A DNA stretch of 31,595 nt. Origin: an uncultured virus (IMG/VR IMGVR_UViG_3300028888_000089) (lineage: Duplodnaviria > Heunggongvirae > Uroviricota > Caudoviricetes). Every line of letters begins with the position of its first letter. Position 1 is the stretch's first letter. This document shows, piece after piece, positions 2,591-31,595 of the stretch. Position numbers and translations under genes: made by a program. The stretch is from IMG/VR virus record IMGVR_UViG_3300028888_000089. One strand, 5' to 3'. A model generated the notes under the pieces. That model saw nothing but the letters and a program-made list of their open reading frames with translations, was not told the origin of the DNA and ran no database searches.

Positions 2591-3748
<1,158 letters not shown>

Positions 3749-4097
3749 CTTCCGAATCATCCTCCTTCTTTAATGAACGTTCGTGAGTAATGGAAATATC
3801 ATCGCCTTCGATATAGACCTCAACTCTGGTGGTCTTTTGAGTTATGGATATAAGTCTATTCCATCCAGAATAAGTCGTCTTATCGAGAAAATGAGGTTCG
3901 TCTATTTCAAAAGTAATAGTACTAAATTTAGAAACCTCATTAAAATAAGAAAATGCCTCTGCAAAAGATATTCCTTCTAAAAAACAAGTTAATGTCTTTT
4001 CGTAATATCCGCATTGGCAATTTTCCAACACAGTTCCGTCACCGAGCTTTAATCTATAGACAACGTCAGCCATGCGGTATCACCTTCCATTTTGATT

Positions 4098-7500: not shown

Positions 7501-7844
7501 CCTGGATAATAGGTGTCATTTAAAAATGCTAATGCTCCTTCGCAGTGAACCTTTTGTTCACCAAAGAAACCATTACTTACAGTAAGAACCCGTCCGTAGA
7601 ATATGGTATCGCCGTCATAGTCTACTTGAACATATGTCCGCATCTGTATGCAAGAATCAAAGTATGTGGTTCCATTTTGAATTCCGAGATCCATGCTTGT
7701 AGCATTGCCCATATCGCCCTTTGTAGTAGGCGCTAACAAACGAATCGCAGATTCACTTCCAGCTGGAATTGTTTGTACTTTAGTACGACCAGTATGAATT
7801 CCACCAGAAGAATCCTTATAGTAATAAAAATAGATGTCAATCAT
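4509..7844 (-). CDS. Tail tip / baseplate hub protein (Tal-like minor structural protein) with long C-terminal extension
   Basis: Follows Dit; N-terminal motifs IFYGRV, CEGALAFLND, IEVGKNLLD, IFTAVIPIG and VKAVDL...LGDRV are typical of Firmicute siphophage minor tail proteins; T/S/V-rich beta C-terminus. Confidence 0.82.
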   Translation of the reverse strand: MIDIYFYYYKDSSGGIHTGRTKVQTIPAGSESAIRLLAPTTKGDMGNATSMDLGIQNGTTYFDSCIQMRTYVQVDYDGDTIFYGRVLTVSNGFFGEQKVHCEGALAFLNDTYYPGTEKKNRKAITINAHITAVLNNHNAQVADDRKKIYPGEIPGGYSSSISAAQRIENASRDFGTSGWTTTKSVLEDLKSHYGGCFRIRYADNKCYLDWMNHYFRSTVNTQTIEVGKNLLDISGSTEVSNIFTAVIPIGKSSSTDKGLYLNGYTTNGHTFNTNYMLVPEICKSLYSYGSYTDSQLNSGYHEAEDYKTAITNYGRIFKTIDFQDAKNQAELFNKVSEWIKNNYQGGVETFSVKAVDLHFIGESTGKILLGDRVKIKYPIGTKTSVARIVTRILTCTSVTYDLFNPENNQYTFGIPANALSKTYGDNTEKKKKTSSSYSPPKDPDDGEDKEPDWNSSIVEWFASHKIYKRSVGSQSETGWAEETEDPSGYEGKLYGYFIETIASKSEDGSYLSRIYYPIVAGVTPDPANPSKQIYHWRKSGNLPQFTKAYKKTSEITASLLKSHLLFEYVKDEYGINLETDLSVTKPPLTTDDAGNIEISVPGGPTINIGTIVDPVSGEVDFEGIKTTIMDQLGGGEDIVIATDKFGHTGYYKETEDGRKVMISLDPKTGEYKYYDKDGKETTIRDLKLSAVQSDTFIGSMVTENIVGQDGKFHTYKMGQAIENWAGGEMVVAYVDGDIVKIGSRDRTKKIYLTGEQIILGDDDSSNTVIKALIDAGVIDSDTLESNSLVLSSVYAHDMYAINGHFQSIESQYLKTSLLESYVSLLPNIFVKTKLTFGSNSYASFEGPDGNISISYSRLSSNITNVQIVQASASSNTYNLQVKTYGDPNEWTTVSSFSRATTLTGEWSGRRYVVTASPQGNISVGEVYDGLVPTGSVTVSGKSVKQDFIVYSMDPDTYDADKKIMQKTVTINASEVYDNGRNHVNLTDPSWNAITGSVPDHRTVSVSTTGRPTNLTKSATLYLTQNSFGSNHKKTVFLRMNSTTGTVYAQTEVDATQQYNDGKYNWSHNAYLYCSDISYGTTGTKTVTLQVSYSASQSVPFSVGSNKRVYFD

Positions 7845-14300: not shown

Positions 14301-15284
14301 TAAACTAAAGTCTTCAAATTTCTTTTGAATGGCTTTTTGTTGATCTTCTGTTAAATCTACAACCGGTTTAATAACAGCATCGGGATCAAGATCATTTCGA
14401 TAATAACCCTCAAGGGTCTTACCTAATGTGTTTTTATCTGCCCACTTTTTATTAAGGGTTTCAGCAAGATTCGAATATGTAACTTCTGTTTGTTTACCAA
14501 ATTTCTTTGCGGTTTTAACTACTGTTTTACCATTTCTATCGGTTGAAACAACAAGGTTCCCTGTCTGAATACCAGCCTGAATAAGTTGTTCTTTGAACTC
14601 CTTTGTCGCCATGCCAGCATTTTCAATAGACTTCCAGTCGATCTTCTGTAAAGAGCCAACGCCCATGGCCTGACTTAAATTGTACATCGCTCGTGATGCT
14701 TCATTTATGCCAGCGCCAGAACGAGCTGCCCAGTTAGCTATACCCTCCATCTGCTTTTCAGCTTGTTCGAGGGGTATACCAACAGAAGTAAATTTACCTA
14801 TGTTAGCAGCCATCTCCGTGAAATTATAACTTGTCTGGTCTGTATATCTATTTAATCTTTCCAAATTACTATATACATCTTCTTGTGAACGACCAGTTGC
14901 TGCCATAATTGTCTGAACATTTTTGTTCATCTGGCCATATTTATCCAGACCTTGCGTTATTTGTTCAAAACCTAAAGAATCTACAAATCTTCCTATCTTA
15001 TTAGCTGTAGATTCTATTCCATATCTAATTTTGCTTAAAATATATTCACTTACGGTTCCGAGACCTGTAAACTTGTCAGTAAGTTTTTGGACGTTGTTCA
15101 CTAAATTGTCGAAAGTCAAAGCTTTTGTTGCTCTTGCAAAGTCAGAAAGGCTTCTTTCACATTTATTGAAATCCAAATTTTCTTTAAATTTGGACAATGA
15201 CTTATCACTCGTCTTAATGTTTCTTTCGAAATCTCTATTATCGAATTGCATTTGGATAACACGAGTGTCAACGGCATTTGGCAT
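8331..15284 (-). CDS. Tape measure protein (2317 aa)
   Basis: Very long helical ORF; N-terminal tape-measure domain (LNRYTDQTSYNFTEMAANIGKFTSVG...ASRAMYNLSQAM); central hydrophobic ~40-aa repeats; canonical position. Confidence 0.95.
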   Translation of the reverse strand: MPNAVDTRVIQMQFDNRDFERNIKTSDKSLSKFKENLDFNKCERSLSDFARATKALTFDNLVNNVQKLTDKFTGLGTVSEYILSKIRYGIESTANKIGRFVDSLGFEQITQGLDKYGQMNKNVQTIMAATGRSQEDVYSNLERLNRYTDQTSYNFTEMAANIGKFTSVGIPLEQAEKQMEGIANWAARSGAGINEASRAMYNLSQAMGVGSLQKIDWKSIENAGMATKEFKEQLIQAGIQTGNLVVSTDRNGKTVVKTAKKFGKQTEVTYSNLAETLNKKWADKNTLGKTLEGYYRNDLDPDAVIKPVVDLTEDQQKAIQKKFEDFSLNKDDFSYLETQNLATTELKQAAIDAAVKMGTLVKTVDKSGKAIYKTNKVYGKEIEVTLDNIASTLEVGWFDKSVAQQIGLIENLADASYAAAQKCTTLSDVFNAWRDQLSTGWMRAWQLIFGDLSESMELFSTICNKVGDHFSEFIKLLVGGEEDLEDGTTQHVDGILSYWAKIGGRDSLWSMFVGEYDGMYEGAYGILDVIDDIGKMIGDAFWTLLKIMDPKLDSLSNEKWMDNEAYRVQYLGNEFKKAIEKVKGFIQGIKDFLNAVPEGQTKSRFQMITDTITGVFSIFAIVYSIFKDIVGFILKIFGPDMLGPVIDDIIEIFKSFGDELTKTGKAANRGEGLKKFFDDISKILIDSGLIDAIKSFSGAFKRLILTITGANSGQSTTISLWQQLANVLAKVFNFVAKIATPIVNFLTRITNAFKRLVTGQISFETFAMHIKTGFEQMINSIFSFTPNFTGQVKGIFQAIKKVFTSGFSKESIKDLSDKVGALFGDFKKKIPGGVKEAIKSIYTNIKTFVSNIWTKIKAVIDPLIDDIKNVFKSGFSKSSIKQLGRRFKTIFGQLYDKLPDGVKEAFTNISSKISAKLKEIWEKIKAKVMGIFSFGSKDTKQVLDKDGKPVKGAVGSFFDKLKTWFNDFAKDFKESTTNANLFTLIKEALGLGVLGKFIGGLIGLFKSTNVFFLIQNFMGLFALFKLIKLFKSGSGLLGTVQGFFTNLSDTVKNGLHIKMDNETETFGDKLLKIAKAIALIAASIAVLGLIPLKNLVQGMIAFTVILGVILGFMAILKKIAADFKQTMTIIGVLAALGFAVIAISIGVAILLLALKPVAEMKPEGVIKMLTALSGILLILVIFARVVQQEEKGIKVKGVMSIVLLSVAVAILVFSLKSLADLEWGQLGKMGASLFVILAMLVAFTKKVSFIKGAGMFQLILLAGSIWILLEALKPLANYEWGQLAKMGAGLVLLMLTLTAFTNDSASMKRTGMGQLIIVAGAIFLLLEAIKPLANYSWESLGKMGASLVVLLGLIVLFTKTTSGLKIGDIGGVGAISGAIYALVQAALPLANFEWEQLGKMGAGLAAIIAMVIIMTHLIKPAKDVKSGLGSASVMLGLVAVIASFSLLFLVVKDVSWDKIVAACLSIMAVITVYMLLITRLTKIKDMTKAIPMMLMMVALAVVLGAFGLALRSVKNVDPKTILAFAAGLTVLIVGMAAALFILSKVNVATGIVAIGVLVAGIILVMGAIALMIPVVMNAIGSGLESMMAKLALVGGMFADFSRGMGEVSEGELDAAKRKFEKLMDIILITKDAGSYISGINDFETCMLKLGNGVSQFVYSTSDLSDPENNEGLKFIKEILSYKDEFSNFSIGNFNNDVAELGGSLSIFGGSFATEDVEKIQSGIKMIQDLAGQATNLDTLSKLPLDTLKNNIAGLGGALSIYATGATEADGLQEGDVPDIQKAVELMRSVITSLGADGGFELPNIPKDDVLGDFGIDLAALATAMTKFASASQDLGDTSKAIELLDFLGNLKLKLTVASLDPIGAFTGANVTTDALTDFAVNIAVLGIALQKFSDKTKNFSYSQNVKDALTFFADLKTRLTKERLSSVLIFKEAGITSTDVLTEFGNNIGELGEALGKFANNVNFDDEKAEKFSQAINALDRISDIARRLPIIEGVSQWFSGHVQTIGSLAEDIEKVGQGMANFSNALTKDGQSYNSELVESAVGNLLSFSEVISFLSKNLSDDGSTFKVSAVRAAGYIAEFLQAMNTGYSYVNDAGEPVGFDSAVEPLAQMVKEFDDWFDVFDGKDIKNSSAFSAFRDMTEGISALINVDPSLDFGKVGTSISDGIKKGIIGGEDDVKQAVLNLCRSALLAAETDTLDSSPKITPILDLSKISTDAEKLNALLNNPYITMNADGTLAIDPSGVNDYANQAIPTDYTSAIGEVRDGIDNMRSDLRTLAEAMQQMKFVFQTGSVVAAIGPEMDKYLAEQGYYAVRSQIP

Positions 15285-18229: not shown

Positions 18230-20341
18230 TTATTCGCCATCATCGTCGTCTTCTTCGGTTTCGACTTCTTCTTCGATGACAATCGCAGAATAGGGCTTAG
18301 TCAGAGCACCAGAGCAGTAAGTTTCGATCAGATACTTCTGCTGGTTGTAGTCGATGTCGAAGTCTTCGAACATATTGATGCTGCCACCCTTATCGGCACC
18401 AACATTGTAGTCATTCAGGTCAAGAATGATAACCAGCGGCTTATAGGTCTTGTCAGTGGTCTCGTCAACACGAACAGTAGAGCTTTCGCTCATCTGAGGC
18501 ACAAACAGAATTTCTTTCACGCCCAGAGCGCTGGCAATTTCAGAATCATTAGCATAAATGCGCCGACCCTGACGATCCTTCAGCAGCTTCAGACCACTAT
18601 ACTCACGGCGGGTCATCAGAGCAACGCAGTCACCAGTACCCTGATAATCTTCCCAAGCATAAGTAACGGTGTCGACCAGAGCTTCGCCCCTAGGAGTGCC
18701 TTCGGGAACTTCCAGAGTCTTGCGGATAACATACAGCGGGTCATCCTTAAACACAGGAATGATCTTATCTTCCTTAATCTTGTCTTCAGACTCGGGGCTA
18801 CGGCCATCACCAACGATAAAGGCACGAGCCAGTTCCTCGTCCAGCATCATGCGCATTTCGCTCTTCAGCCAAGCGACCTTATCGAAACCTTCGCTGATGT
18901 CAATCATGTCCTGACGATCCAGCTTCTGCTTCTTATAAACCATGTCCGGACCGACTTCACGCTTCAGAAGGGCCAGAACTTCTTCCTTCTTCTTATGGGA
19001 CTTCAGGTAACCCCGCGCACGAGCCTGTGCACCAGTGATATCGGCAAAGGTCATCTTAACCTTAGCAAAGGGAGTATGATGAACACCGCGCATGATCTTG
19101 GACACCCAGGTCGTATCGCGCTTAATGAACTGAGGGGCACCATTTCCGCTAACTTCGCGGTATTCGGGCTGCAGATAATCAATCTGCTCAATTCCATATT
19201 CCTGACTATGCTGGAGAATAGCTTCTTTTAGTGTGCTTTTCATAGCATCACGCTGGATCGTTGCAAGCTGATCATGGGTCAGGGTGTCATTCTGGATTTC
19301 CGTAGCACTGTTGTCAAAAATATTTCTATTCATAGTATAATCCTCTCCTTCTTCGTATGAATGGGAAGCTTCATCATCTTCCTCATCTTCACCATCGTCA
19401 TTGTCTTCTTTAGAAGCTAAAGCCTGAGCAACAAGGAACTCTGTTACCTTGCGCTGTTTTTCAGACATGCTATCGAGCACATCCTGAACCGTACGTTCTC
19501 CTGAATCTGCATGAGAAACGGGTTTCTCTTCTTCAGTTTCATTTCCTTCCTCTGCATCTTCGCCTTCGAGAGCCTGACCGACAAGATATTCAACAACCTG
19601 ACGCTGTTCGTCATTCATTGAATCAAGAACATCCTGAACAGTTTCGTTAGCATCGTCTTCGGAGTCATCAGCATGCTGAATTACAGAGTTCTTTTTGTTC
19701 TTCTCTTCATCGCCTTCGTCGTTTTCATTGCCTTCGCCATCGGTTTCATCTTTGTCTTCACCCTCTGGCTCTTCTTCTACGACTTTTTCATTCTTTTTAG
19801 ATTCTTTTTTTGCATTGGCCTCTTCTTCGTCTTCATCTTCTTCATCCTTTGCAGAATGCTTAAGACTCATTCCGTCGCCCATTTCAAGGCCATCTTCATC
19901 ACCAGGCCAAATATAAGCCTCGGTTTCGCTTTCTTCTCCATGTTCAAGAATCGGGAACTCAATTACTGCCCCAGGATTAGCCCCAGCAAGAACAACACTA
20001 AGTTCTCTAATGGTACCATGGATGACGTCTCCACCACGCTGAGTTAACTTATTAGCAAATATGCTAAGTCCATTAATGTCACCATGACGAATACATTCCT
20101 TGACATGCCTTCCGATGTCAGTACCATTCAAACTGCAATACGCATAAACGCCTTCATTTCGATTTTCAAGTAACGCATGACCGATTACACGAGTAGGGTC
20201 CTCATGATTATGCTGATAAACCAGCGGAACCGTTCGCCCGTCATCGTCCTTAAAGGCGTCTCTTCGAATGGTTCTGCCATCGGCGCAAAGCAGATCATTT
20301 TTAGTTGCCCAGCCACCGAAGTCAAATTTGTTTTTGCTCAT
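18230..20341 (-). CDS. Prohead protease - acidic scaffold - major capsid protein fusion (HK97 fold)
   Basis: N-terminal HK97-type protease motifs (FGGWAT, VPLVYQHNH, GLSIFAN, RELSVVLAGANPGA); D/E-rich linker aa ~135-335; capsid motifs LDEELARAFIVGDG, LKDRQGRRIY and FDIDYNQQKYLIE. Confidence 0.93.
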   Translation of the reverse strand: MSKNKFDFGGWATKNDLLCADGRTIRRDAFKDDDGRTVPLVYQHNHEDPTRVIGHALLENRNEGVYAYCSLNGTDIGRHVKECIRHGDINGLSIFANKLTQRGGDVIHGTIRELSVVLAGANPGAVIEFPILEHGEESETEAYIWPGDEDGLEMGDGMSLKHSAKDEEDEDEEEANAKKESKKNEKVVEEEPEGEDKDETDGEGNENDEGDEEKNKKNSVIQHADDSEDDANETVQDVLDSMNDEQRQVVEYLVGQALEGEDAEEGNETEEEKPVSHADSGERTVQDVLDSMSEKQRKVTEFLVAQALASKEDNDDGEDEEDDEASHSYEEGEDYTMNRNIFDNSATEIQNDTLTHDQLATIQRDAMKSTLKEAILQHSQEYGIEQIDYLQPEYREVSGNGAPQFIKRDTTWVSKIMRGVHHTPFAKVKMTFADITGAQARARGYLKSHKKKEEVLALLKREVGPDMVYKKQKLDRQDMIDISEGFDKVAWLKSEMRMMLDEELARAFIVGDGRSPESEDKIKEDKIIPVFKDDPLYVIRKTLEVPEGTPRGEALVDTVTYAWEDYQGTGDCVALMTRREYSGLKLLKDRQGRRIYANDSEIASALGVKEILFVPQMSESSTVRVDETTDKTYKPLVIILDLNDYNVGADKGGSINMFEDFDIDYNQQKYLIETYCSGALTKPYSAIVIEEEVETEEDDDDGE

Positions 20342-21742: not shown

Positions 21743-21937
21743 TTAAGCATTTCTCTTGCTTGCTTTATCTGCTTTGCGCTTTTTTACGGAGTTATATGCC
21801 CAAGCGGTGGTATGTCCAGCAGCAGAAATACCAGAGCCAATAGAAACTCCAGTCGACACTGTCGCCAATAAGCTAGTGGGGCCTTTAACTCCATAATGGC
21901 AAAGAAAATATGGAGAATTTTTAAACGATGTTGGCAC
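21743..21937 (-). CDS. Leader-family gene 8: truncated leader fused to a short hydrophobic/basic peptide (possible deletion remnant)
   Basis: MPTSFKNSPYFLCHYGVKG then departs from the family consensus; GTG start with AGGAG RBS; 30 nt identical to the 5' end of 21976..22647. Confidence 0.65.
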   Translation of the reverse strand: MPTSFKNSPYFLCHYGVKGPTSLLATVSTGVSIGSGISAAGHTTAWAYNSVKKRKADKASKRNA

Positions 21938-22635
21938 GTCATCAACTCCTATTGATTAAAATCGTTTTATTTAGTTTACATCCAACGATATAATCCACTA
22001 GAATTAATATAATTCCAAAACAATTCATCTTGTTTACTTAATGGCAGATCGTTGAAATTGGGATATTGTTTTTCTAAATCAGAGTATGCTGTGCTAATCG
22101 CTTTTTTAGAGCTCATTTTCTTTGTTCCGTATTTTTCACTGCGGGGATCAATATAGTCCGGATCATTATTTGGTGACGTTTTAGAATCATTTTGTTTATT
22201 CTTTTTATTTTCTTTTTCTTTCTGTTTTTTAACTTTTTTTTCAAGTTCTTTAACGTCATCATCAGCGCTAGTGTTATAGAACACCATCTCATTTAGCCAC
22301 TCTTTACCGACTATTGTTTTTGGATCGGTTTTCATATCTTTGGCTAAAGTTTCTACAAAATTTTTCTTATAGGCATCAACAACTTCTTTTGTGTATTCTA
22401 AATTGTTAATATCCTGATTTAAATCTACTTTTTCATATTTTTTATTTATTTTCTTAAGATCCCTGTTCATATTATCAACGGATCTATTATAAAGCTCGAC
22501 CTGTTTGCCGATATCTTCGATATACCGTCTACGGCCTTCTTCAGTTAGTGTTCCATCTTCATTCTGAAACCTTCGAACGCCCCAATGTTGACCTTTGATG
22601 CCATGATGGCAAAGAAAATATGGAGAATTTTTAAA
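21896..22635. repeat. 30-bp exact direct repeat in the leader-coding regions (21896-21925 and 22606-22635)
   Basis: atggcaaagaaaatatggagaatttttaaa occurs at both positions. Confidence 0.9.
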
Positions 22636-22647
22636 AGACATTGGCAT
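21976..22647 (-). CDS. Leader-family gene 7: soluble K-rich helical body
   Basis: MPMSFKNSPYFLCHHGIKGQHWGVRRFQNEDGTLTEEGRRRY leader. Confidence 0.85.
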   Translation of the reverse strand: MPMSFKNSPYFLCHHGIKGQHWGVRRFQNEDGTLTEEGRRRYIEDIGKQVELYNRSVDNMNRDLKKINKKYEKVDLNQDINNLEYTKEVVDAYKKNFVETLAKDMKTDPKTIVGKEWLNEMVFYNTSADDDVKELEKKVKKQKEKENKKNKQNDSKTSPNNDPDYIDPRSEKYGTKKMSSKKAISTAYSDLEKQYPNFNDLPLSKQDELFWNYINSSGLYRWM

Positions 22648-22654
22648 ATGCGCA

Positions 22655-23206
22655 TCACCTCATCCTAGAAAGATCAATTTTCATCCACGATGCAGTTTTC
22701 ATACTGTCAATAAAACTGTCAGCTTTTGCTTTATATGCCTGATTCATTTTTCCTTTAATGACTCCAATAGCAGTCGCAACCAAAATAGCAGATGCTGTTT
22801 TTCCGAGCCATTCCGCTGCCTTACGCTTATTACTCTTGGTAAGGTTCTTGTATTGCTGTTCACGTTGAAGTCTACTATTTCTTCTATTTAATTCAGCATC
22901 ACTTAAAGTACTAGCATCTTTACTTTTCCAAGTAGAGCTTTCTGGTTTTTCTTTTTTATTTGAACCTTTAACTTTTTTAACACTTGACGTTTTAATTTTA
23001 TCTACTCTAGACAATATTTTATTGAGTTTAGACGAACTTTTTCCAGGACCCATTTGGCCAGGGCTACGTTTTTCTTCTAAATAATGCCGCTTTCCAGCTG
23101 CTGTTAATTCACCGTTTCTATAATAAAGTCCAGCACCCTTTTTACCAGAGCGCCCAGGTTGGCCCCAATGAATTAAATATGACGATCGATTTTCCACTAG
23201 CGTCAC
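22655..23206 (-). CDS. Leader-family gene 6: basic protein with LSDAEL...RLQRE helix and a hydrophobic segment
   Basis: SSYLIHWGQPGRSGKKGAGLYYRNGELTAAGKRHY leader; the start may be GTG at 23197 (MENRSS). Confidence 0.82.
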   Translation of the reverse strand: MTLVENRSSYLIHWGQPGRSGKKGAGLYYRNGELTAAGKRHYLEEKRSPGQMGPGKSSSKLNKILSRVDKIKTSSVKKVKGSNKKEKPESSTWKSKDASTLSDAELNRRNSRLQREQQYKNLTKSNKRKAAEWLGKTASAILVATAIGVIKGKMNQAYKAKADSFIDSMKTASWMKIDLSRMR

Positions 23207-24552
23207 CCCATTAAATTATTTAAAATTTCTTTATCCGTCAATTTTGTTCCAGGATGCTCTTTTTTGTATTCGCGAATAAGTCTAAGATTTGCCTGAGATC
23301 TTACTCCAGCTGCTACTTTTTTATTTGACTTTTTAGTATCTTCCGTTGAAGTCTTATTTTTATCTTTAGCGGCTTTTATAGTTTTCTTCCAATCAGGTTT
23401 TAATTCGGCACAGACAATACCTGCATTTTCCCATTTGACTTCCTTGTCGTCTAATCTAATAGCCTGAGTAGCACTAGGCTGGAAAAATGATAGTTCCTCA
23501 TCAGTTAGTTTTCTTTTAGTATTGCATTGAGCATCATATATCTCCATTTTTCCATCTTGAATCTCAAAAGCCATAGCATGCCCACCGAAAATAGAAGAAA
23601 CCGTTATCATTCCTCTAGATCCTTCTGGGTATTTAGATTCGCATTTGCGATATACTTCAGACCAGTTTTTTCCTCCAATGTTATCTAGCTTTTTGCCAGC
23701 GCCTTCATAAAGATCCTGGACGAGTTTATCGCCATACATCCCTGTTTCACATAATTTCGCTGTTACATCATATCCTCTACGACGTAAGTCATATGTCAAA
23801 CTGCATAAAGCACAGTTACTAGAATTTCCTTTAACAGCCAAATCAAATTTAGGATTAACGGCAGCCATATCAGATTCTCTAGTATGATCTCCTTTTATCT
23901 TCTTAGGAGGTTCATCTGCCGTAAACTGTTGTTTACTAGTAATATCTGAAAGATAGTCTTCAGAAATTTGATCGTTTTGCTCTTTATACTTTTTATGATT
24001 CTTATTTTTTCTAATTGGAGCATATATTTTGCATCCGATTATAAATGCAGCTATAGCTGTTGCTTCTGCAGCATAAGCAACAATTACTGGATCGACCGCC
24101 CCTACTTTATTTTTATCAGTGCCTTGACTAGCTACAACTTCTTTGTGTGTTTTAGCATCTAAAGGGTAAGGCGGGCCATTTTTCTTTCCCCAGGATTGTC
24201 CAGGAATACCATAATGCATCAAATATTCAGTAGTTCTTTTTACATTATAGTAATTTGACGTAACAGAAATACTATGTTCTATTTTTTGATCTTCAGGATG
24301 AATTTTATATGGGTTTTTAAGGAGCTTCATCAATTCCTTATCTTTAAGAACTACTCCTAACGGTATTGAACCGGATGCACCGCCATCTTTAGGATCAAAC
24401 AATCTGAATTCAATATTGGCTTCTGATCTGTCTACTCCTCTGGGGGCTAAACTAAATAGGTACATATCTTTATAGGGGATATAATAAATTGGATACATAT
24501 CCGGATAAATTTCTTTAACTTTAGATATGCTCTCCTTAAGACTCAAAGCCAT
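23203..24552 (-). CDS. Leader-family gene 5: N-terminal ~90-aa domain + internal leader + hydrophobic helix + papain-fold (Tox-PL-like) Cys-His-Asp domain
   Basis: Internal YLMHYGIPGQSWG (His113); NCALCSLTYDLRRRGYDVTA (Cys247), GGHAMAFE (His325), IYDAQ (Asp340). Confidence 0.8.
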   Translation of the reverse strand: MALSLKESISKVKEIYPDMYPIYYIPYKDMYLFSLAPRGVDRSEANIEFRLFDPKDGGASGSIPLGVVLKDKELMKLLKNPYKIHPEDQKIEHSISVTSNYYNVKRTTEYLMHYGIPGQSWGKKNGPPYPLDAKTHKEVVASQGTDKNKVGAVDPVIVAYAAEATAIAAFIIGCKIYAPIRKNKNHKKYKEQNDQISEDYLSDITSKQQFTADEPPKKIKGDHTRESDMAAVNPKFDLAVKGNSSNCALCSLTYDLRRRGYDVTAKLCETGMYGDKLVQDLYEGAGKKLDNIGGKNWSEVYRKCESKYPEGSRGMITVSSIFGGHAMAFEIQDGKMEIYDAQCNTKRKLTDEELSFFQPSATQAIRLDDKEVKWENAGIVCAELKPDWKKTIKAAKDKNKTSTEDTKKSNKKVAAGVRSQANLRLIREYKKEHPGTKLTDKEILNNLMG

Positions 24553-24570
24553 ATATTATACCTCCTATAA

Positions 24571-25266
24571 TTATCTATTTCGCATAAAATCAGCAAAGGC
24601 ACTGCTTCCTGAGGAACTACCGGGGTGCCAATCATATCCGCCATAATATTTAGCATTCTTAATTTTCGATAAAACAGTCCTTGCTTTATTAGCAATCATC
24701 TTATCAGCACCTGTTGATTTAGCAATGTTAACAATAGCAATAGCAGCAATAGACGTCGTTCCGACTCCAAGAAGTAGATTTTTTATGCCGCGACCAACGC
24801 GCTTTACTTTTTCTTTTGTGTCTTGTGTTTTTCTTTCCCTATTTGCTGCTTTCTGATGCTTTTCCATATCCTGCTTAGACAACTCTTGCTCAAATGCTTT
24901 CTTATAATCAGGATCCTTCATTTTTTCACTTATAAGATTTTTAATCTTCTTGCGTCTTGTCCCGGCTCCATCGCCATAATACGCTTTAGCGCGTGCATAT
25001 TCAGAAGCATCTTTTGAAGCTTCATGCTTAATCTTTTTATAGTTTTTGCTTCCATCAGCATTTATAAAATGAGATGTTTTAGTGTTATTTGTTGTTTGAC
25101 TTTGTGAACCTTCATTCTGGGATGGTTCGTGTCCATACTTTTCCATATAATAATGGCGATAGCCTTCTTCGGTAAGCTGACCATTTTTATACCAACGACC
25201 AGCTCCAACTTTGCCAGAACGACCAGGCACTCCATAATGGATTAAATATGAAGATTTATTATACAT
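24571..25266 (-). CDS. Leader-family gene 4: basic protein with a hydrophobic segment
   Basis: Start corrected to ATG 25266 (GAGGTG RBS): MYNKSSYLIHYGVPGRSGKVGAGRWYKNGQLTEEGYRHY; also EYARAKAYYGDGAGTRRK and LLLGVGTTSIAAIAIV. Confidence 0.82.
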   Translation of the reverse strand: MYNKSSYLIHYGVPGRSGKVGAGRWYKNGQLTEEGYRHYYMEKYGHEPSQNEGSQSQTTNNTKTSHFINADGSKNYKKIKHEASKDASEYARAKAYYGDGAGTRRKKIKNLISEKMKDPDYKKAFEQELSKQDMEKHQKAANRERKTQDTKEKVKRVGRGIKNLLLGVGTTSIAAIAIVNIAKSTGADKMIANKARTVLSKIKNAKYYGGYDWHPGSSSGSSAFADFMRNR

Positions 25267-25287
25267 GTATCTCACCTCTTAAAAGTA

Positions 25288-25923
25288 TTATTTAATCCCA
25301 TACTTTTTCAACAAGTCGGAATTAGATCTGTCAAATCTGCTTGTCGCTTTTCCCAATTGCCTGGCCTGCTTTTCTTGCAATTGCTTTATCTTCTCTAAAT
25401 TACGTTGGGCTTTTGCTATCTTATCATCAGTTCTGGCCATTTTATGCTCATTAGCAAGAACTTTCTTAGCTGCTCTAGAATTTCTCTTTATAGAGCTAAT
25501 ATACTTATGCTGTTTCCTTCTGCTACTTAAGTCTATGTCTTTGCCAGCCGATTTAAGTATCATTGACTTCTTCAGTTGGCCACGCTTATGAATACCATAA
25601 GCAGCAACGGCAGCTAAAGTAACTGCGCCAGCAGCGATCATAATTTTCTTAGCTTTTTCTTTTCTTGCTTTTTCCTGAGCTTTTGTCTCTTTTTTAGATT
25701 TTGTTTTAGTTACATTAGACGATGCGATCCTTTGCTTTATGGCGTTGCCAACAGCTCGAATGGCATCGGCGCCTCGATTGAAATCAGATTGCCTATACTG
25801 CTCTTCGCGTTGACGCTGTCCTTCTGGGGTCAATGAACCATCTTCATTTTGAAAACGACGAATACCCCAGTGCTGGCCTTTTATACCAAAGTGAATTAAA
25901 TAATCATTATCCTCGTACAACAT
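25288..25923 (-). CDS. Leader-family gene 3: very basic protein with one hydrophobic helix
   Basis: MLYEDNDYLIHFGIKGQHWGIRRFQNEDGSLTPEG leader; IMIAAGAVTLAAVAAYGI; paralog of 25942..26679. Confidence 0.87.
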   Translation of the reverse strand: MLYEDNDYLIHFGIKGQHWGIRRFQNEDGSLTPEGQRQREEQYRQSDFNRGADAIRAVGNAIKQRIASSNVTKTKSKKETKAQEKARKEKAKKIMIAAGAVTLAAVAAYGIHKRGQLKKSMILKSAGKDIDLSSRRKQHKYISSIKRNSRAAKKVLANEHKMARTDDKIAKAQRNLEKIKQLQEKQARQLGKATSRFDRSNSDLLKKYGIK

Positions 25924-26637
25924 AAAAGGCCTCCTGATATGTCAAATTCTGCCAATGGCGTGTATATTTCTAGCTGCCAACTTACGAGATTTCTCTATAG
26001 TATGCTTTGATAACGGCTTTAATTTTCCAGTTATCTTACTTTTAGTAAATCCTTTTTCTATGCCAATCGGACCAAGTCGCTTTTCGATAATATCAGCCAT
26101 ATTTTGAGATGCTAATTTATTGTTTTTAATATATCTACTTGCATCTTTTCTGGTCATATGAAGTGCTTTTCTAGCAGAACGTCGACCTCTTATTTTGGCC
26201 ATTTCTTTAACTCGTTTTACCGCAAGATTCTCTTGCTCTTTTGCTGTCAAAAATCTCGTATCTTTTGGGGTATATTCAGCATGCACCTTATTTTTTGCAA
26301 TTTCCATTAAGTTAGCTGTTGCTTTTTCTCTGCGATGAAGCGCATATGCTCCAGCAGCCGCTAAAGTGACTGCACCAGCTGCAATCAAAATTTTCTTAGC
26401 TCTATCTTTTCTTGCCTTTTCCTGAGCTGGTGTCCCTTTTTTAGGTTTGGATTTAGTTATATTAGATGGCGTAATTTGACGTCTCTGAGAATTTCCAACA
26501 GAGCGTATTGCATCTGTTCCGCGTTTAAAATCGTGACTTCTATATTGGTCATAATATTCAGCACGTTGACGCTGTCCTTCTGGCGTTAACGAACCATCTT
26601 CATTTTGAAAACGACGAATACCCCAGTGCTGGCCTTT
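25835..26637. repeat. 47-bp exact direct repeat in the leader-coding regions (25835-25881 and 26591-26637)
   Basis: gaaccatcttcattttgaaaacgacgaataccccagtgctggccttt occurs at both positions; similarity extends through the RBS (GGAGGCCTTTTATG). Confidence 0.9.
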
Positions 26638-26679
26638 GATGCCATAATGAACTAAATAATCGTTATCTTCGTATAGCAT
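25942..26679 (-). CDS. Leader-family gene 2: very basic protein with one hydrophobic helix
   Basis: MLYEDNDYLVHYGIKGQHWGIRRFQNEDGSLTPEG leader; ILIAAGAVTLAAAGAYAL. Confidence 0.87.
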   Translation of the reverse strand: MLYEDNDYLVHYGIKGQHWGIRRFQNEDGSLTPEGQRQRAEYYDQYRSHDFKRGTDAIRSVGNSQRRQITPSNITKSKPKKGTPAQEKARKDRAKKILIAAGAVTLAAAGAYALHRREKATANLMEIAKNKVHAEYTPKDTRFLTAKEQENLAVKRVKEMAKIRGRRSARKALHMTRKDASRYIKNNKLASQNMADIIEKRLGPIGIEKGFTKSKITGKLKPLSKHTIEKSRKLAARNIHAIGRI

Positions 26680-26696: not shown

Positions 26697-27263
26697 TTAT
26701 AAGTCTTTAATTATTTCATCATTGGAATTGACAATATACTCTAAACGATGCTCTATATAATGGTTTTTTTCGTTTTCTACGATCATATGGTCAATGATTA
26801 TCAAAAAATCTTCGTACTCTAATTTTCTCTGTGAAATTTCAATAATAGAAAACTTATCAGAATCCATATACTCATCTAAAGCGAATCCTCGACTTCTTAT
26901 CATTATACTTTTATCAAAATTTGCTATTCCATATTTGATATCAAGTCCGGATTCAATAGTTTCATAATCTCCTGTTTGAATAGTTCCGCTTTCAGAGTAT
27001 ACTATTCGAATTCCATTTAGTTTATTGTTCGTAAAAATGTAGACTAGTGCGCTTTTAGGTATTCCAGAAAGGGCAATATTTTTAGCAAAGATATAATAAG
27101 AGGACTTAGTGAATAATCCTTCAACTTCTTTGTTAAACACCTCATCTATAGAATCTCCAAAGTGAATCCCGTTTCTATATTCAAATATAGTAGGTGCTTC
27201 CGAATATGAAACGCTAGGAATAATTAATAAAATTGCTAATAATATTAGTAAAAATTTCCTCAT
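26697..27263 (-). CDS. Secreted/exported hypothetical protein (moron-like)
   Basis: Sec-type signal peptide MRKFLLILLAILLIIPSVSYSEA; AGGAGG RBS; AT-rich; lacks the family leader. Confidence 0.8.
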   Translation of the reverse strand: MRKFLLILLAILLIIPSVSYSEAPTIFEYRNGIHFGDSIDEVFNKEVEGLFTKSSYYIFAKNIALSGIPKSALVYIFTNNKLNGIRIVYSESGTIQTGDYETIESGLDIKYGIANFDKSIMIRSRGFALDEYMDSDKFSIIEISQRKLEYEDFLIIIDHMIVENEKNHYIEHRLEYIVNSNDEIIKDL

Positions 27264-27289
27264 TGCATACTTCCTCCTAAATATACAAA

Positions 27290-29044
27290 TTACTCGAATG
27301 CATCTGTATTTAATTTATAAGCAACGTATGCATCAATTAATGCCGCAACAGAGTCGATCTTTTGATCGGACCGCTTTTTCTGCAGCTTTCTGTTGCCATT
27401 TGTGTCTTCAAGTGTAACAGCATTTCCCATTGTGAACATCATGATTTGCTGATCGAATATAAGCATTCTTTCTGCACAAATCTTTTTAATTTCGCCAATC
27501 GGAACACTCTCGGTTTTTGCACCTTGGATTACTTTCTCAACACCAAATTCGCCATTTTCGCGAATCCATCTTTCAACGAAAGCTCTCGCGTTATATGGGT
27601 CGAATCCAAAGCAACGAATATCGTATTGGCAATCTGAAATATATCGATCGAGATCATCATATACGTCCATCATTTCTAGAACTGTGCCTTCCATGATGAT
27701 AAGACTACCTTCATTTATGAAATCATCATACTTTATTCTTAATGCAGCCGAGAGCTTACTTAATGTGAATGAAGTAATATAACATCTGGTTTTCACACCA
27801 TATTGCCCACGTCCTAATGGGAATAAGAAAGTAAATGCACAGAAGTCATCGCCCTGTGACAAGTCTGCACCCATAGCGCATGGCATATTCCAGAAATCTC
27901 TTCTTCTATGTGGTATAGTTTCTTCATACTTAAAGAAGAACGTATAACCTTCAGACGGAATATTAAATCTCTTAGCGAGCATGTCATTCTTATAAGCAGG
28001 TGCATTCTCCGCTTTCTCAATATCTAACAAATATGTTTCGAATGTGACTGTTTTACCTAGATTAGGATTAGCTTTAAGCCACACCATAGGATCGGTCTTT
28101 CCAAGTTCGACTTCTTTAATATCATCAAGCTTGTAATACCAAATCGAAACATGCGGATTAATGTACTCGCCTCTTAAAATGCTCTCGAGCTCCATCTTAA
28201 TTGTATCACCAGGGCCATTACGAACCGTACCTTCGGAACTAGCAGCAACGATAAGATAGTCATCGTTCTTAGAAGCACCTTGCTCAAGAGAGCCGATAAC
28301 ATCCTCACGAATAACACCAGAAAGCCACTCGTCGACTGTTGCAATTTTACAACGAAGACCCTCAAGTTTATCGATAGACATTGGCCGGATTTCGAGAATA
28401 GAGTTTGTAAGAAAATTTTCAATACCTTTCTTTGTAGAAGCTATCTTCTGCCTATCCGCTTTACTACCAGTTGTATTTTGAAGTGATCCGTCAGTCATAA
28501 ACTTAAGCAACGGACCTCTAGCTCGAGCTATGGCTGTTCTTAATGGCGACATAACTTCATTAGCCTGCTTCATAGTAGGAGCAGTTGTAATTTGTTGCGT
28601 CGTAGAAGTGTCAACAATTAAGAAATATGCCTGAATAAAGGCCATATACATAGACTTAGCAGCAGCTCTAGGAATAACCAAAAACTGCTTATTAATGAGC
28701 CTCTTTTTTACTCTTCTTGTTTCATAATGTATGGACTTTCCATCGGGACTTGTTACGGCCACACTTCTTGTTACAAAGTAGTACCAACCAAATACCTGCT
28801 CAGCCCATAATTTAAAAGTATCCAAAAGAAAAAGATCTGACCCATCAGTTAAGGTCAGCTCATTTTCGCAAAAAGCAATAAAACCATTTATTGCATCTTC
28901 GTCGTAATAATATTGAGGATCCCTTATGAGGGCGTCTATCCTCGTCATTTCCATCGAGATCTCACGGCACACCGGAATCTCTCCACGTAGTACCTGGTCC
29001 CGGAATTTTCCATAATAATATGGAGTTGCCGTGTTTGACAGCAT
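27290..29044 (-). CDS. terL: Terminase large subunit
   Basis: Walker A-like IPRAAAKS, Walker B ATVDEW, coupling motif AASSEG, nuclease MGADLSQGDDF, FDPYNA, C-terminal KIDSVAALIDAY. Confidence 0.95.
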   Translation of the reverse strand: MLSNTATPYYYGKFRDQVLRGEIPVCREISMEMTRIDALIRDPQYYYDEDAINGFIAFCENELTLTDGSDLFLLDTFKLWAEQVFGWYYFVTRSVAVTSPDGKSIHYETRRVKKRLINKQFLVIPRAAAKSMYMAFIQAYFLIVDTSTTQQITTAPTMKQANEVMSPLRTAIARARGPLLKFMTDGSLQNTTGSKADRQKIASTKKGIENFLTNSILEIRPMSIDKLEGLRCKIATVDEWLSGVIREDVIGSLEQGASKNDDYLIVAASSEGTVRNGPGDTIKMELESILRGEYINPHVSIWYYKLDDIKEVELGKTDPMVWLKANPNLGKTVTFETYLLDIEKAENAPAYKNDMLAKRFNIPSEGYTFFFKYEETIPHRRRDFWNMPCAMGADLSQGDDFCAFTFLFPLGRGQYGVKTRCYITSFTLSKLSAALRIKYDDFINEGSLIIMEGTVLEMMDVYDDLDRYISDCQYDIRCFGFDPYNARAFVERWIRENGEFGVEKVIQGAKTESVPIGEIKKICAERMLIFDQQIMMFTMGNAVTLEDTNGNRKLQKKRSDQKIDSVAALIDAYVAYKLNTDAFE

Positions 29045-29084
29045 TCTATTGCCCTCCTTTCAAAGCAAATGGAATGCATAGGAT

Positions 29085-30140
29085 TTAGTCCCATTTAATA
29101 TGATCGACTAGCTCTTGAAGAGTTTCGCCTGGTTTTTGTTCTTTATCATTAAAGTCTCCAAATGACAAACTGGAATATTTTTTATTATTTCCAAATTCTC
29201 CAGTTTTATGTGCTTTTTTAATTTCTTTCTTTATAGCATCTACACTATCGTATTCTTTGACGCCAGCTCTATCAGCCCAGGCATTTTCCACCCAGTATGT
29301 TTTATTATTCTTAATAAAATATACTAAACTGTGCGTCATTCCACCTTTATCGCCAAGATGTTCCATGACAAAAAGAGCTTTTGGATCGAGGCCTAATTTT
29401 CTAAGCTCTCTAAGTTCATACATGACTTGATCGTGGCACGATCCTTTTCTTTGTTTACTAACAGCATCTGGAGACATTAATGTTGTAAATTCTTTGTATT
29501 TAAAATCTTTCATAGATTGGGCAACTTTATCCGCTTTTATTTGTTGCTCATCTACCCAGTCATCTTTATCTTTTCTATTTATGCTAAATACTTTAACATC
29601 TTTACTTTGATCAATTAATCTAGATACGTTTTTACGTGTGGCACTAGCCCCGTCTTCAATTACAACTGCCAATCCGACAGTGGCTGCTTTTGTCATCGCT
29701 TCGTCTTTTTTAGCTAGCCATTCTTTTGACCCAGGCTCATGATCAGTATCATTTATAGGATGGGTTTTCCATTTTTTATTTGCCGAATATCTAACACTTG
29801 TTCCTGGGCCATATACTTCAACTCGTTCGTATTTCTTTGAATTCAAATAATCTTGAACTTGTCTATCAATCCCAGGAGCATCTCCAACTACAAATTTGCT
29901 TCCGCTTTCTATAGCTTCATCGATCTCATCGCGAATTTCTTTCGGAAGCTCTTTTCTATAATACTCTGATTCTTTATCCTGTGTCTTTGATGATCCAGAA
30001 ATAAAAACAACATCATTTTTAGAGTATCTGTGTTTCCCTTCTTGCGTAAGCGTTCCGTCTTCGTTTTGAAATCGACGAACACCCCAACGCTGGCCTTTAA
30101 TGCCATAATGGACTAAATATAAGTTGTCTTCGTATAGCAT
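29085..30140 (-). CDS. Leader-family gene 1: leader + SLOG/YspA-like domain + transglutaminase/papain-like domain
   Basis: MLYEDNLYLVHYGIKGQRWGVRRFQNEDGTLTQEG; VFISGS...FVVGDAPGIDRQVQDYL...KDEAM...ATRKNV (SLOG-like); GSCHDQ (Cys235), THSLVYF (His270), YWVENAW (Glu285). Confidence 0.75.
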   Translation of the reverse strand: MLYEDNLYLVHYGIKGQRWGVRRFQNEDGTLTQEGKHRYSKNDVVFISGSSKTQDKESEYYRKELPKEIRDEIDEAIESGSKFVVGDAPGIDRQVQDYLNSKKYERVEVYGPGTSVRYSANKKWKTHPINDTDHEPGSKEWLAKKDEAMTKAATVGLAVVIEDGASATRKNVSRLIDQSKDVKVFSINRKDKDDWVDEQQIKADKVAQSMKDFKYKEFTTLMSPDAVSKQRKGSCHDQVMYELRELRKLGLDPKALFVMEHLGDKGGMTHSLVYFIKNNKTYWVENAWADRAGVKEYDSVDAIKKEIKKAHKTGEFGNNKKYSSLSFGDFNDKEQKPGETLQELVDHIKWD

Positions 30141-30155
30141 AAAGGCCTCCTAAAA

Positions 30156-30545
30156 TTAACATTCCGTATGCGGGTTGTTGTCGTAATTTACAAATGAGAA
30201 CTTTTTAACAGACTCGGCCTGCATGACTATACGCTGTTCATACTCCGTGCATCGATCTTTCATAGCTTCCATCACATAGGAATTTCCAGGAGGATCGAAT
30301 ATCATCTTAACTTTCATATATACGTATTCCTGAACAGCATTTAACATAACCTCATTTGAGGAAAGAAAATCAGACCATGTTTTGGAATTATCTCTAATTG
30401 AGAAACCTTCTTCGGGACCGACGCCAAGTTGAGTCAACGTCATGAAAGCCGAGTTGATTAAAATTATGATGTCCATATCAAATGGCGTATAGTCATCCTT
30501 AATGCCGAGTAATTTCTTTATCGTTGCAAGAATGCTTTCACTCAT
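30156..30545 (-). CDS. Head-tail adaptor/connector (gp6/gp15-like)
   Basis: SILATIKKLLGI..DYTPFD.DIIILINSAF..L.QLGV and YVYMKVKMIFDPP helical adaptor signature. Confidence 0.75.
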   Translation of the reverse strand: MSESILATIKKLLGIKDDYTPFDMDIIILINSAFMTLTQLGVGPEEGFSIRDNSKTWSDFLSSNEVMLNAVQEYVYMKVKMIFDPPGNSYVMEAMKDRCTEYEQRIVMQAESVKKFSFVNYDNNPHTEC

Positions 30546-30569
30546 TCATATCGGTCCTTTCTTAATAAT

Positions 30570-30989
30570 TTAGTTTTTCCATGGACAAGTATCGTTAGGA
30601 ACTCTAACTATTGGTTCAATTGCCAATAAACTGGAGTCTCCATAATGTATCGCATTATGCGTTCTATGACTTACGCATATTAGGTACTCTGGATTGAATA
30701 TATCATCTGATACATCTTCTATGTCTTTTTGTGTTAGTGGATTCATATGATGAATGATGATCTTACTTTTAATATCGTATCCAGCAACACCAAGATCACA
30801 TCCATTATCTCTTATGATTATCTCGTTTCGAATTTTTCTCCAACGATCAGAAGTGTATAGCAACTGATTTAAATATCGATCGAATCCGAAAGTAGATTCG
30901 CCAACGATTCCTGCTAATCGTAAGTACTCATATCGATCCATAAAAGTTTCTAATCTTTTGAGTTCTGAATATCTTCTTTGTGGTCCCAT
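30570..30989 (-). CDS. HNH endonuclease (packaging-associated, HK97 gp74-like position)
   Basis: W..IR..IIIRDNGCDLG, IIIHHMNP and YLICVSHRTHNAIH motifs; located near the terminase genes. Confidence 0.85.
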   Translation of the reverse strand: MGPQRRYSELKRLETFMDRYEYLRLAGIVGESTFGFDRYLNQLLYTSDRWRKIRNEIIIRDNGCDLGVAGYDIKSKIIIHHMNPLTQKDIEDVSDDIFNPEYLICVSHRTHNAIHYGDSSLLAIEPIVRVPNDTCPWKN

Positions 30990-31327
30990 TATTCATTACT
31001 CCTATTTATTGATCCTTGGTAAATCTGCATAGCCTCAATAGCATTTCTATACATCTCTTCAGACTTTGCTGCAGATTTGACTGCGTCAGCTTTTGCTTCC
31101 AGCAGCAGATTCTCCTTTCGAAGCTTTTCCTTTTCTAATTGATTCTTAGTTGTTGCCAACTTCAAATAATGAAGAACAACCTGATTTGAAGGATGCTCTT
31201 TCATAAGTTCTCGTTCAGCGGCATCTATAGCCAAACTAATAAGTTGGTTTTCTCTTGCTTCAGGATCAACTGCTGGGGCAACTCTGCGCTTAATTGTGCC
31301 GTCTGATATCTTTTTACTGGCAGCCAT
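30989..31327 (-). CDS. First late-operon gene; possible terminase small subunit
   Basis: 112-aa helical/coiled-coil protein (RENQLISLA, VVLHYLKL, LEKEKLRKEN.LL.AK) with GGAGG RBS; function inferred from position only. Confidence 0.55.
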   Translation of the reverse strand: MAASKKISDGTIKRRVAPAVDPEARENQLISLAIDAAERELMKEHPSNQVVLHYLKLATTKNQLEKEKLRKENLLLEAKADAVKSAAKSEEMYRNAIEAMQIYQGSINRSNE

Positions 31328-31409
31328 GCGCTTTTAACCTCCATTCAGTTTATCTCCTTAACATTCTTTAACATGCAGGATACTTTCGCTAGTTTGAGTG
31401 GCACTTTTA

Positions 31410-31505
31410 GCATACTTTTGAAGCAGGCATCGAATACTGAAAGGAGCTCTTGCAGGACCAGAACAAGAACAAAAAAAGCACCCGATACCTGTTTCAAAAG
31501 TATGC
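31410..31505. repeat. 23-bp inverted repeat (21/23) with 50-nt spacer upstream of the late operon
   Basis: gcatacttttgaagcaggcatcg (31410-31432) pairs with cgatacctgtttcaaaagtatgc (31483-31505). Confidence 0.85.
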
Positions 31506-31595
31506 ATCGCATAAGTTACTAAAAAATATAATCCAAGTTTCGCATAAAAATATAATTAGCGTTTTTCAAAAATTCCCTCCGGAGAAAATTCAAAG

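Follow-up and report, generated by a model that had tools for sequence, protein, structure and literature searches.

The 31,595-nt stretch of DNA analysed here (the window) comes from an uncultured virus, a phage of the gut type (IMG/VR record IMGVR_UViG_3300028888_000089), and carries on its minus strand, at 29085..30140, a gene for a 351-aa protein in which a short leader is followed by a SLOG-fold domain and by a transglutaminase-like domain of the cysteine-peptidase fold. The leader belongs to the Pfam family DUF7211, the gene lies among packaging genes, and each of the two domains also occurs alone behind a leader of its own. We see about an even chance that the protein is soluble phage cargo in which two modules, each able to exist on its own, are fused behind a single DUF7211 tag, and which would be loaded into the head, trimmed and delivered to the host. 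Phage-delivered effector fusions and viral SLOG domains are already known; what is new is a SLOG family of more than 1300 clusters, without a curated model, that is found fused to a transglutaminase-fold peptidase and the DUF7211 tag.

Two separable domains behind one leader

The gene was located in the open reading frame (ORF) list of the window, and a Shine-Dalgarno sequence, GGAGG, was read on the same strand 5 bases 5′ of its ATG (30146..30150). The first-pass annotation had described a leader-bearing ORF placed between an adaptor gene and terL, and this is what is present: the Phage_connect_2 head-tail connector gene (30156-30545, E 1.3e-34 in Pfam) lies upstream and the TerL gene (27290-29044, Pfam) downstream. 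Of the 2636 candidates in a protein search, 898 proved to be homologous at E ≤ 1e-3 and these, together with the conserved Cys, His and Glu residues described below, show that the ORF is not a chance one. The exact protein was found on two contigs, the longest of 93,595 nt, and a 100% identical copy lies on the 12.9-kb IMG/VR contig L001 (record G001). A hydropathy computation found no membrane-type hydrophobic segment in the protein. Among GenBank phages, megablast gave no match to window positions 27000-31595, and with tblastn the leader alone was matched (6 records, coverage ≤24%). NCBIfam gave nothing relevant for the protein, and the sequence searches of solved structures gave at best E 0.052 with the single protein, to a designed repeat protein, and only a match at E 0.48 with the full-length profile.

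An AlphaFold2 model, for which an alignment of 36 full-length homologues served as input, reached a predicted local distance difference test (pLDDT) score of 88.7 and a predicted template-modelling (pTM) score of 0.77, with only aa 1-12 below a pLDDT of 50. A VIA-align structure search against representatives split this model in two, aa 41-205 matching SLOG structures and aa 196-351 matching cysteine peptidases, and Foldseek concurred for both parts. Hence, the SLOG and transglutaminase-like folds that had been predicted from the sequence were both recovered, and the proposed triad of Cys235, His270 and Glu285 is present in the protein and kept among its homologues.

The SLOG-fold Rossmannoid domain (aa 43-197, 29550..30014, minus strand) is delimited by the VIA-align Z scores and by invariant columns. 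Its closest structure is YpsA (2nx2, Z 14.0, 147 residues aligned over aa 41-195 with a root-mean-square deviation (rmsd) of 3.3), at an identity of 10%, followed by TM1055 (13.2), DprA (12.7, 12.6 and 11.8) and ShosA (12.6), so that the best SLOG matches lie at Z 12-14; the same search also gave the Mo-cofactor carrier protein (MCP, 12.2), LOG (10.8), the SLOG domain of TRPM2 (9.8) and ThsA (8.9). The superpositions align 127-147 residues across aa 41-207 in a three-layer alpha/beta Rossmannoid arrangement. Foldseek against the PDB gave a probability of 1.0 for ShosA, DprA and YpsA, and the best matches in BFVD were viral DUF2493, 'YspA cpYpsA-related SLOG' and DprA-like proteins.

The four motif strings on which the SLOG assignment had originally leaned, VFISGS (aa 45-50), VVGDAPGID (aa 84-92), KDEAM (aa 145-149) and ATRKNV (aa 167-172), were all found, and the conserved loops of the domain read S48-G-S-S-K-T-Q54, G86-D-A-P-G-I-D-R-Q94, R117-Y118, W124-K-T126 and G164...A167-T-R169..N171. 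Invariant in the full-length alignment (36/36) are S48, G49, T53, Q54, G86, G90, D92, R93, Q94, R117, Y118, T168 and N171. In a SLOG-only alignment of 30 phages, which has a mean column identity of 65%, the invariant residues are F46, S48, G49, S50, S51, T53, G86-D-A-P-G90, D92, Q94, Q96, R117, W124, K145, D146, G164, A167, T168 and N171.

These conserved residues cluster in three places. In the loop directly after strand 44-49, F46, S48, G49, S51, T53 and Q54 are invariant and S50 and K52 are conserved in at least 90%, which gives the protein the conserved polar, Gly-rich loop that follows strand 1 in SLOG domains and that, according to Iyer et al. 2022 (PMC9503650), contacts the nucleotide. 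At the helix start after strand 2, G90-I91-D92 is invariant in both alignments (36/36 and 30/30); judged by its position, G90-x-D92 would fit the GxD/E signature of the YpsA clade, which is predicted to bind substrate and comprises G53 and E55 in B. subtilis YpsA (PMC6459960). After strand 107-112, the invariant pair R117-Y118 is followed by W124, K125 and T126, which are kept in at least 90%; this loop appears to fall in the region after strand 3 that Iyer et al. name as the active site of the class (PMC9503650).

At the sequence level, the SLOG part is an orphan that no curated model matches. A Pfam scan of the protein at E ≤ 0.1 returned only DUF7211 and DUF553 and no SLOG-family model, the Pfam YpsA model (PF06908) did not match on the identical contig G001, a profile search of the PDB with the SLOG alignment gave 0 matches at E ≤ 10, and the ESM Atlas gave weak leads only (scores 0.79-0.80). 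LOG phosphoribohydrolases carry the motif PGGxGTxxE, in which the Glu is catalytic. A LOG-type hydrolase is not indicated here, the stretch D163-G-A-S-A-T-R-K-N171, aligned by eye, having the invariant Asn171 at the position of that Glu.

The structural model puts the module, in all likelihood, on the YpsA/DprA side of the superfamily. As DprA and ShosA are among the top structural matches, we considered whether the domain could bind DNA as DprA does and coat or protect the genome on its entry. This is highly improbable, since the domain is acidic (pI 5.4), the Pfam scan returned no DprA model, YpsA is the best match and the conserved loops resemble the pockets of small ligands. The acidic domain and its intact, strongly conserved pocket loops argue instead for a small-molecule binder or enzyme, and the module would most likely bind or cleave a small molecule of the adenine-nucleotide type.

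The C-terminal domain (aa 205-351, 29088..29528, minus strand) has the transglutaminase-like cysteine-peptidase fold. Over aa 196-351, VIA-align gave CPR-C4 (7pjo, Z 11.7, 141 residues aligned, rmsd 3.0), vasohibins (6j4s, 10.3 and 9.8) and LapG of Peptidase_C93 (4fgo, 9.5), and, at lower scores, TglA (8.6), Ceg10 (8.4), PeiW (8.0), SseI (7.7) and PeiP (7.5). The Pfam model DUF553 (PF04473) matches the protein below threshold (19.0 bits against a cut-off of 20.5, E 1e-3); among the 36 homologues at E ≤ 0.01 it is found in 16 and Transglut_core (PF01841) in 11, and in the extended form P0067 DUF553 exceeds its cut-off with 21.7 bits. The ESM Atlas placed the peptidase part in DUF553/Peptidase_C93 clusters (scores 0.91-0.93). 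With CPR-C4, the vasohibins, LapG and the DUF553/Transglut_core families, the domain shares the fold as well as the conserved Cys and His.

Cys235 (codon TGC, 29436..29438, minus strand), the candidate nucleophile, lies in the motif G-S-C-H-D-Q. It is invariant, as is His270 (CAC, 29331..29333, minus strand), both in the full-length alignment (36/36) and in an alignment of 19 peptidase-domain sequences that includes stand-alone leader-plus-peptidase proteins (19/19). Glu285 (GAA, 29286..29288, minus strand), the candidate third residue, is conserved in at least 90% of the former and in 19/19 of the latter, the one clear exception being homologue P0020, in which the frame is lost there; the adjoining Asn286 is kept in at least 90% of the 36 homologues. 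The domain thus has the papain/transglutaminase core fold with a conserved Cys, His and polar third residue, and on this conservation Cys235-His270-Glu285 is a candidate catalytic triad. CPR-C4 and the vasohibins are described as having a Cys-His-Leu(carbonyl) triad (PMC9108980), whereas the present protein has the conserved Glu285/Asn286 15-16 residues after the His. P0020 is the shifted product of a SLOG-peptidase gene on two near-identical contigs (L003:1880-1895 and L004:1880-1896), where a stretch of 8 or 9 T shortly behind the counterpart of His270 marks the change of frame; the cause could be a sequencing error or variation at a site prone to slippage.

For the Cys-His-Glu module, the substrate would most likely be a protein or peptide, modified via a thioester intermediate by proteolysis, deamidation or acyl transfer. 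A different substrate would be the cell wall, the domain then being a virion endo- or isopeptidase that opens peptidoglycan at DNA entry. The fold does resemble the pseudomurein endoisopeptidases PeiW and PeiP, DUF553 is matched, and tagged neighbours with hydrophobic segments (see below) could build an ejection conduit. However, the intracellular-type peptidases CPR-C4 and vasohibin score higher than either endoisopeptidase, the Pfam scan of the protein returned no cell-wall-binding domain, and the tail already has a Prophage_tail endopeptidase protein (4509-7844, Pfam), which makes a cell-wall role clearly improbable.

Both domains belong to larger sets of exchangeable modules. A SLOG-only profile collected 1332 clusters (at 50% identity) at E ≤ 1e-3, 657 at E ≤ 1e-10 and 136 at E ≤ 1e-30. 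When the best 120 single-sequence hits were sorted by a motif script, 46 consisted of leader and SLOG alone (~195 aa), 60 had a C-terminal and 10 an N-terminal extension, and the SLOG regular expression was not matched in 4. In 36 extended forms, Pfam found an ADP-ribosyltransferase (ART; P0024), a GNAT domain (P0107), DUF5662 (9 proteins) and DUF553 (P0067), along with a second DUF7211 stretch in 7. Among 133 of 141 new representatives (8 short fragments were excluded from the scan), Pfam found GNAT in 15, Gln_amidase in 4 and DUF5662 in 2, and DUF7211 at E ≤ 1e-4 in 75; polyproteins with up to four tags exist (P0222). A search of shorter proteins gave 18 matches among 24 candidates to stand-alone leader-plus-peptidase proteins, which are 173-186 aa long and 55-62% identical, with DUF7211 in 11 of the 18. 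In one remote relative (P0257, SLOG E 3e-28), SLOG and peptidase follow each other in the same order. One genome per prokaryote species was also searched with two strict peptide patterns for the SLOG part; this search, limited by the patterns, gave 86 pattern matches and 0 confirmed relatives; so far, the SLOG family has been seen in metagenomic phage contigs only.

No second tag stands between the two domains of the protein. Since both domains are also found as stand-alone proteins with a leader, the protein can be read as two independent tagged modules, now fused, of which the inner one no longer has its tag. The separate existence of both modules also weakens the need for the SLOG domain to regulate the peptidase; of the two-domain enzyme proposed at first, the two folds therefore stand, and the idea of a single coupled enzyme has lost ground.

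The polyproteins with 2-4 tags raise a further possibility, namely that the cysteine peptidase acts on tagged cargo as well as on polyproteins and frees their modules by cutting at or near the DUF7211 tags; autoproteolytic release of domains has been proposed for polyvalent proteins (PMC5512222). We regard this as very unlikely, because most related phages are tagged and yet lack such a peptidase (it is present in 5 of 38 loci), because the head protease, given the matching hydrophobic-x-His sites, is the more economical choice, and because there is no second tag to cut between the domains of the protein itself.

The DUF7211 leader and the packaging genes

The leader (aa 1-42, 30015..30140, minus strand) is of low confidence and mostly unstructured in the model (pLDDT 39-73 across aa 1-40). 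It passes the gathering cut-off of Pfam DUF7211 (PF23847, aa 7-23, 30072-30122, minus strand, 28.0 bits against 27), a family found at E ≤ 0.01 in 28 of the 36 full-length homologues, and it is matched by phrog_32444 over aa 4-43 (E 2.4e-14). Its fixed Leu-x-His, Leu9-Val10-His11 (30108..30116, minus strand), in which His11 is invariant (36/36), is a candidate prohead-protease site. We collected 263 tag copies from 291 proteins with a regular expression anchored on the His alone, and found L/I/V/M/A at position -2 in all 263 (Leu in 238), a variable position -1, and Tyr or His after the tag His in 232. Within the window, the leader DNA occurs as four repeats of 72-78% identity.

A similar pattern is found in the capsid precursor of the same phage, a 703-aa fusion of an S78 prohead protease, an acidic spacer and the major capsid protein (18230..20341, minus strand, Pfam). 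In the spacer of ~250 aa (aa 130-380), 7/7 His have L/I/V/M/A at -2 (background 0.22, binomial p 2.8e-5), compared with 4/9 in the rest of the precursor, and in six relatives a hydrophobic residue stands at -2 of 34/40 His between residues 121 and 420. The spacer also contains two copies of a helix-like repeat, TVQDVLDSM..Q..V.E.LV.QAL. A complex prediction of leader aa 1-45 with the 703-aa precursor, run without controls, scored 0.00 and counts neither way.

In phage T4, the capsid-targeting sequence (CTS) sits on Alt and on the internal proteins IPI-III and is removed by the prohead protease. DUF7211 resembles it in that one short N-terminal peptide is common to several unrelated proteins of the head and packaging module, that a hydrophobic-x-residue motif is also present in the capsid precursor, and that the cargo includes an ART fusion (P0024). 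It differs in its sequence, which is unrelated, in its candidate site (Leu-x-His against Leu/Ile-x-Glu in T4), in that it may be internal and repeated in polyproteins, and in that packaging is here read from the genes. Delivery in the virion can reasonably be inferred from the shared tag, the position among packaging genes and the match of Leu-x-His to the spacer. On the model of the T4 CTS, the protein would most likely be synthesised late and be guided into the procapsid by its tag and the fixed Leu-x-His in it; an S78-type head protease would trim it at Leu-x-His, and the trimmed protein would enter the host with the DNA, where both modules would act early.

The gene neighbourhood was followed in 38 related IMG/VR loci, which contain 104 non-redundant tagged ORFs. 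In 35/38 the SLOG gene is surrounded by HNH, connector, TerL and portal genes, most often in the slot between TerL and portal (11), between HNH and connector (10) or between connector and TerL (8). Since the slot varies between loci, the connector-TerL position seen in the window is one of several cargo slots. In three loci (L007, L035 and L037) no HNH, connector, TerL or portal marker lies within about 6 kb of the SLOG gene, which places the SLOG module in another genomic setting or phage group as well. The combination of SLOG and peptidase is found in only 5/38 loci (L001-L004 and L008). The cultured Faecalibacterium phage FP_oengus (L040) has the same gene order, with the tagged gp69 before the portal gene.

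The location in a late packaging and head module would also suit a protein that is not delivered at all. DUF7211 would then be an assembly or regulation peptide shared by late proteins, and the protein would act in the producing cell, for instance by cross-linking or trimming virion parts at head maturation. Transglutaminase-fold enzymes can form isopeptide bonds, and packaging into virions is drawn from the tag and the gene context rather than from a direct result. However, the module is accessory: its presence in only 5/38 loci, together with the varying slot, argues against a core function in morphogenesis, and the partners found behind the same tag (ART, GNAT and glutamine deamidase) are typical of effectors that modify the host. 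We therefore consider a role confined to the producing cell decidedly unlikely.

Tagged ORFs and other genes of the window

The leader or a variant of it was found on eight ORFs of the window, including the SLOG-peptidase gene, all on the minus strand. Following TerL in the direction of transcription are an ORF of 245 aa (25942..26679, pI 10.5, one hydrophobic segment, assigned by Pfam/PHROG and hydropathy) and its paralogue of 211 aa (25288..25923, by sequence comparison), both with the leader. An ORF of 234 aa (24571..25275) has the variant leader LIHYGVPGRSG, and one of 183 aa (22655..23206) the variant LIHWGQPGRSG. The same type of variant, ILEHYGTKRHSGRYPWG, is found near the N-terminus (residues 21-35) of FP_oengus gp55, which is annotated as an RNA polymerase. 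These four ORFs (245, 211, 234 and 183 aa) are strongly basic (pI 9.9-10.5) and have one membrane-like segment each, with a best 19-residue hydropathy of 1.3-2.0.

Between the two variant-bearing ORFs lies one of 449 aa (23203..24552), with an internal leader (LMHYGIPGQ, His113) and a papain-fold Gln_amidase domain (PF15644, 26.2 bits, cut-off 24.1). It has an N-terminal part of ~100 aa before the leader, a hydrophobic segment at aa 156-174, and homologues in L002 and L003. This predicted glutamine deamidase may be a second cysteine-enzyme cargo of the same phage. The remaining two tagged ORFs encode 223 aa (21976..22647, DUF7211 E 8.4e-6) and 64 aa (21743-21937), the leader of the latter being truncated (…FLCHYGVKG), with a hydrophobic stretch behind it. 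The first 37 nt of the 64-aa ORF (21900-21936) copy the start of the 223-aa ORF (22610-22646) at 92% identity, which suggests that this ORF, located just ahead of the portal gene, arose by duplication or decay of a cargo gene.

Amid the tagged genes and directly after TerL is an acidic 188-aa protein with a signal-peptide-like N-terminus (26697-27263, minus strand), which is without the tag and has no match in Pfam or PHROG. Upstream of the connector, an HNH endonuclease (30570-31327, minus strand, phrog_4321, E 8e-62) directly follows a 112-aa phrog_4259 protein; this order is kept in most related loci and fits a module for HNH-assisted packaging. Elsewhere on the minus strand, the window encodes a very long tape measure protein (8331-15284, 2317 aa) and, near the holin gene, a 389-aa protein with collagen triple-helix repeats (2591-3760).

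A possible role in the infected host

Several points weigh against the reading of the protein as head-loaded cargo with a nucleotide-type ligand. The hydrophobic segments of many tagged neighbours are unusual for soluble head cargo and are reminiscent of ejection proteins. The sites in tag and spacer are not identical, an aromatic residue following the tag His and a small residue or Asp (Gly, Ser, Ala or Asp) the spacer His. No literature was found on DUF7211 by name or on the leader by its sequence, nor any virion proteome with DUF7211 proteins, and a literature search for mass spectrometry of FP_oengus gave nothing relevant. As neither a curated model nor a solved structure matched the SLOG part by sequence, the ligand class is drawn from the fold and the conserved loops only. 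Lastly, two remote leaderless relatives have matches below the Pfam cut-off to a nucleoside 2-deoxyribosyltransferase model, and this may point to another branch within the Rossmannoid class.

Loading and delivery of a fusion of two cargo modules nevertheless remains the explanation that we favour, and it has a parallel in the polyvalent and MuF-effector proteins. These combine several effector-type domains in one polypeptide, lie beside terminase and portal genes and exchange their partners (PMC5512222), as the present family does. Unlike them, the protein has no MuF domain, and its family's modules are bounded by DUF7211 tags; the text of that paper does not mention SLOG or transglutaminase.

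With respect to the SLOG module, Iyer et al. 2022 (PMC9503650) describe viral SLOGs as mainly YpsA-like and predict that they counter immune signals derived from nicotinamide adenine dinucleotide (NAD) or ADP-ribose (ADPr); the counter-defence idea put forward for this gene in the first-pass annotation is thus an already published general prediction. The same source considers NAD/ADPr-handling domains (ARTs, Macro, NADAR and Nudix) encoded beside terminase-portal genes to be probably head-packaged, which it does not state for SLOG. Like the SLOGs surveyed there, the present domain is viral, and its invariant GxD would sit where the signature of the YpsA clade is expected. It differs in that PF06908 does not match and in its partners, which are the DUF7211 tag with peptidase, GNAT or ART and not Macro or NADAR as in PMC9503650. 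The SLOG domain of Thoeris ThsA (7uxs, 7uxt), which had served as a precedent, has the same fold (Z 8.9 over aa 41-200, 17% identity), but it is a clearly weaker match than YpsA, DprA or LOG, it is joined to SIR2 and not to a peptidase, and PADLOC gave 0 matches for the protein, ThsA included.

The SLOG module could plausibly serve to counter host defences that signal through NAD-derived molecules. A more far-reaching version, which we consider unlikely, would have Oengusvirus-like gut phages use DUF7211, cleaved at Leu-x-His, as their general tag for loading proteins into capsids. The SLOGs behind the tag would be injected and act as a first-line enzyme on, or as a sponge for, immune signals that derive from NAD or are adenine nucleotides of another kind (e.g., the cyclic ADP-ribose of Thoeris), and the fusion would deliver, or perhaps gate by ligand, a peptidase that disables host proteins. 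If this were true, the phage would carry a pre-loaded anti-signalling weapon that is active before any phage gene is expressed.

In the wider family, if the tag loads heads, these phages would bring into gut Firmicutes a swappable arsenal of pre-made SLOG, cysteine-peptidase, GNAT, ADP-ribosyltransferase and glutamine-deamidase enzymes, and the tag itself, being short and portable, would offer a practical way of directing selected proteins into the capsids of phages. The identity of the SLOG ligand would directly test the published prediction that viral YpsA-like SLOGs act against NAD-derived immune signalling.

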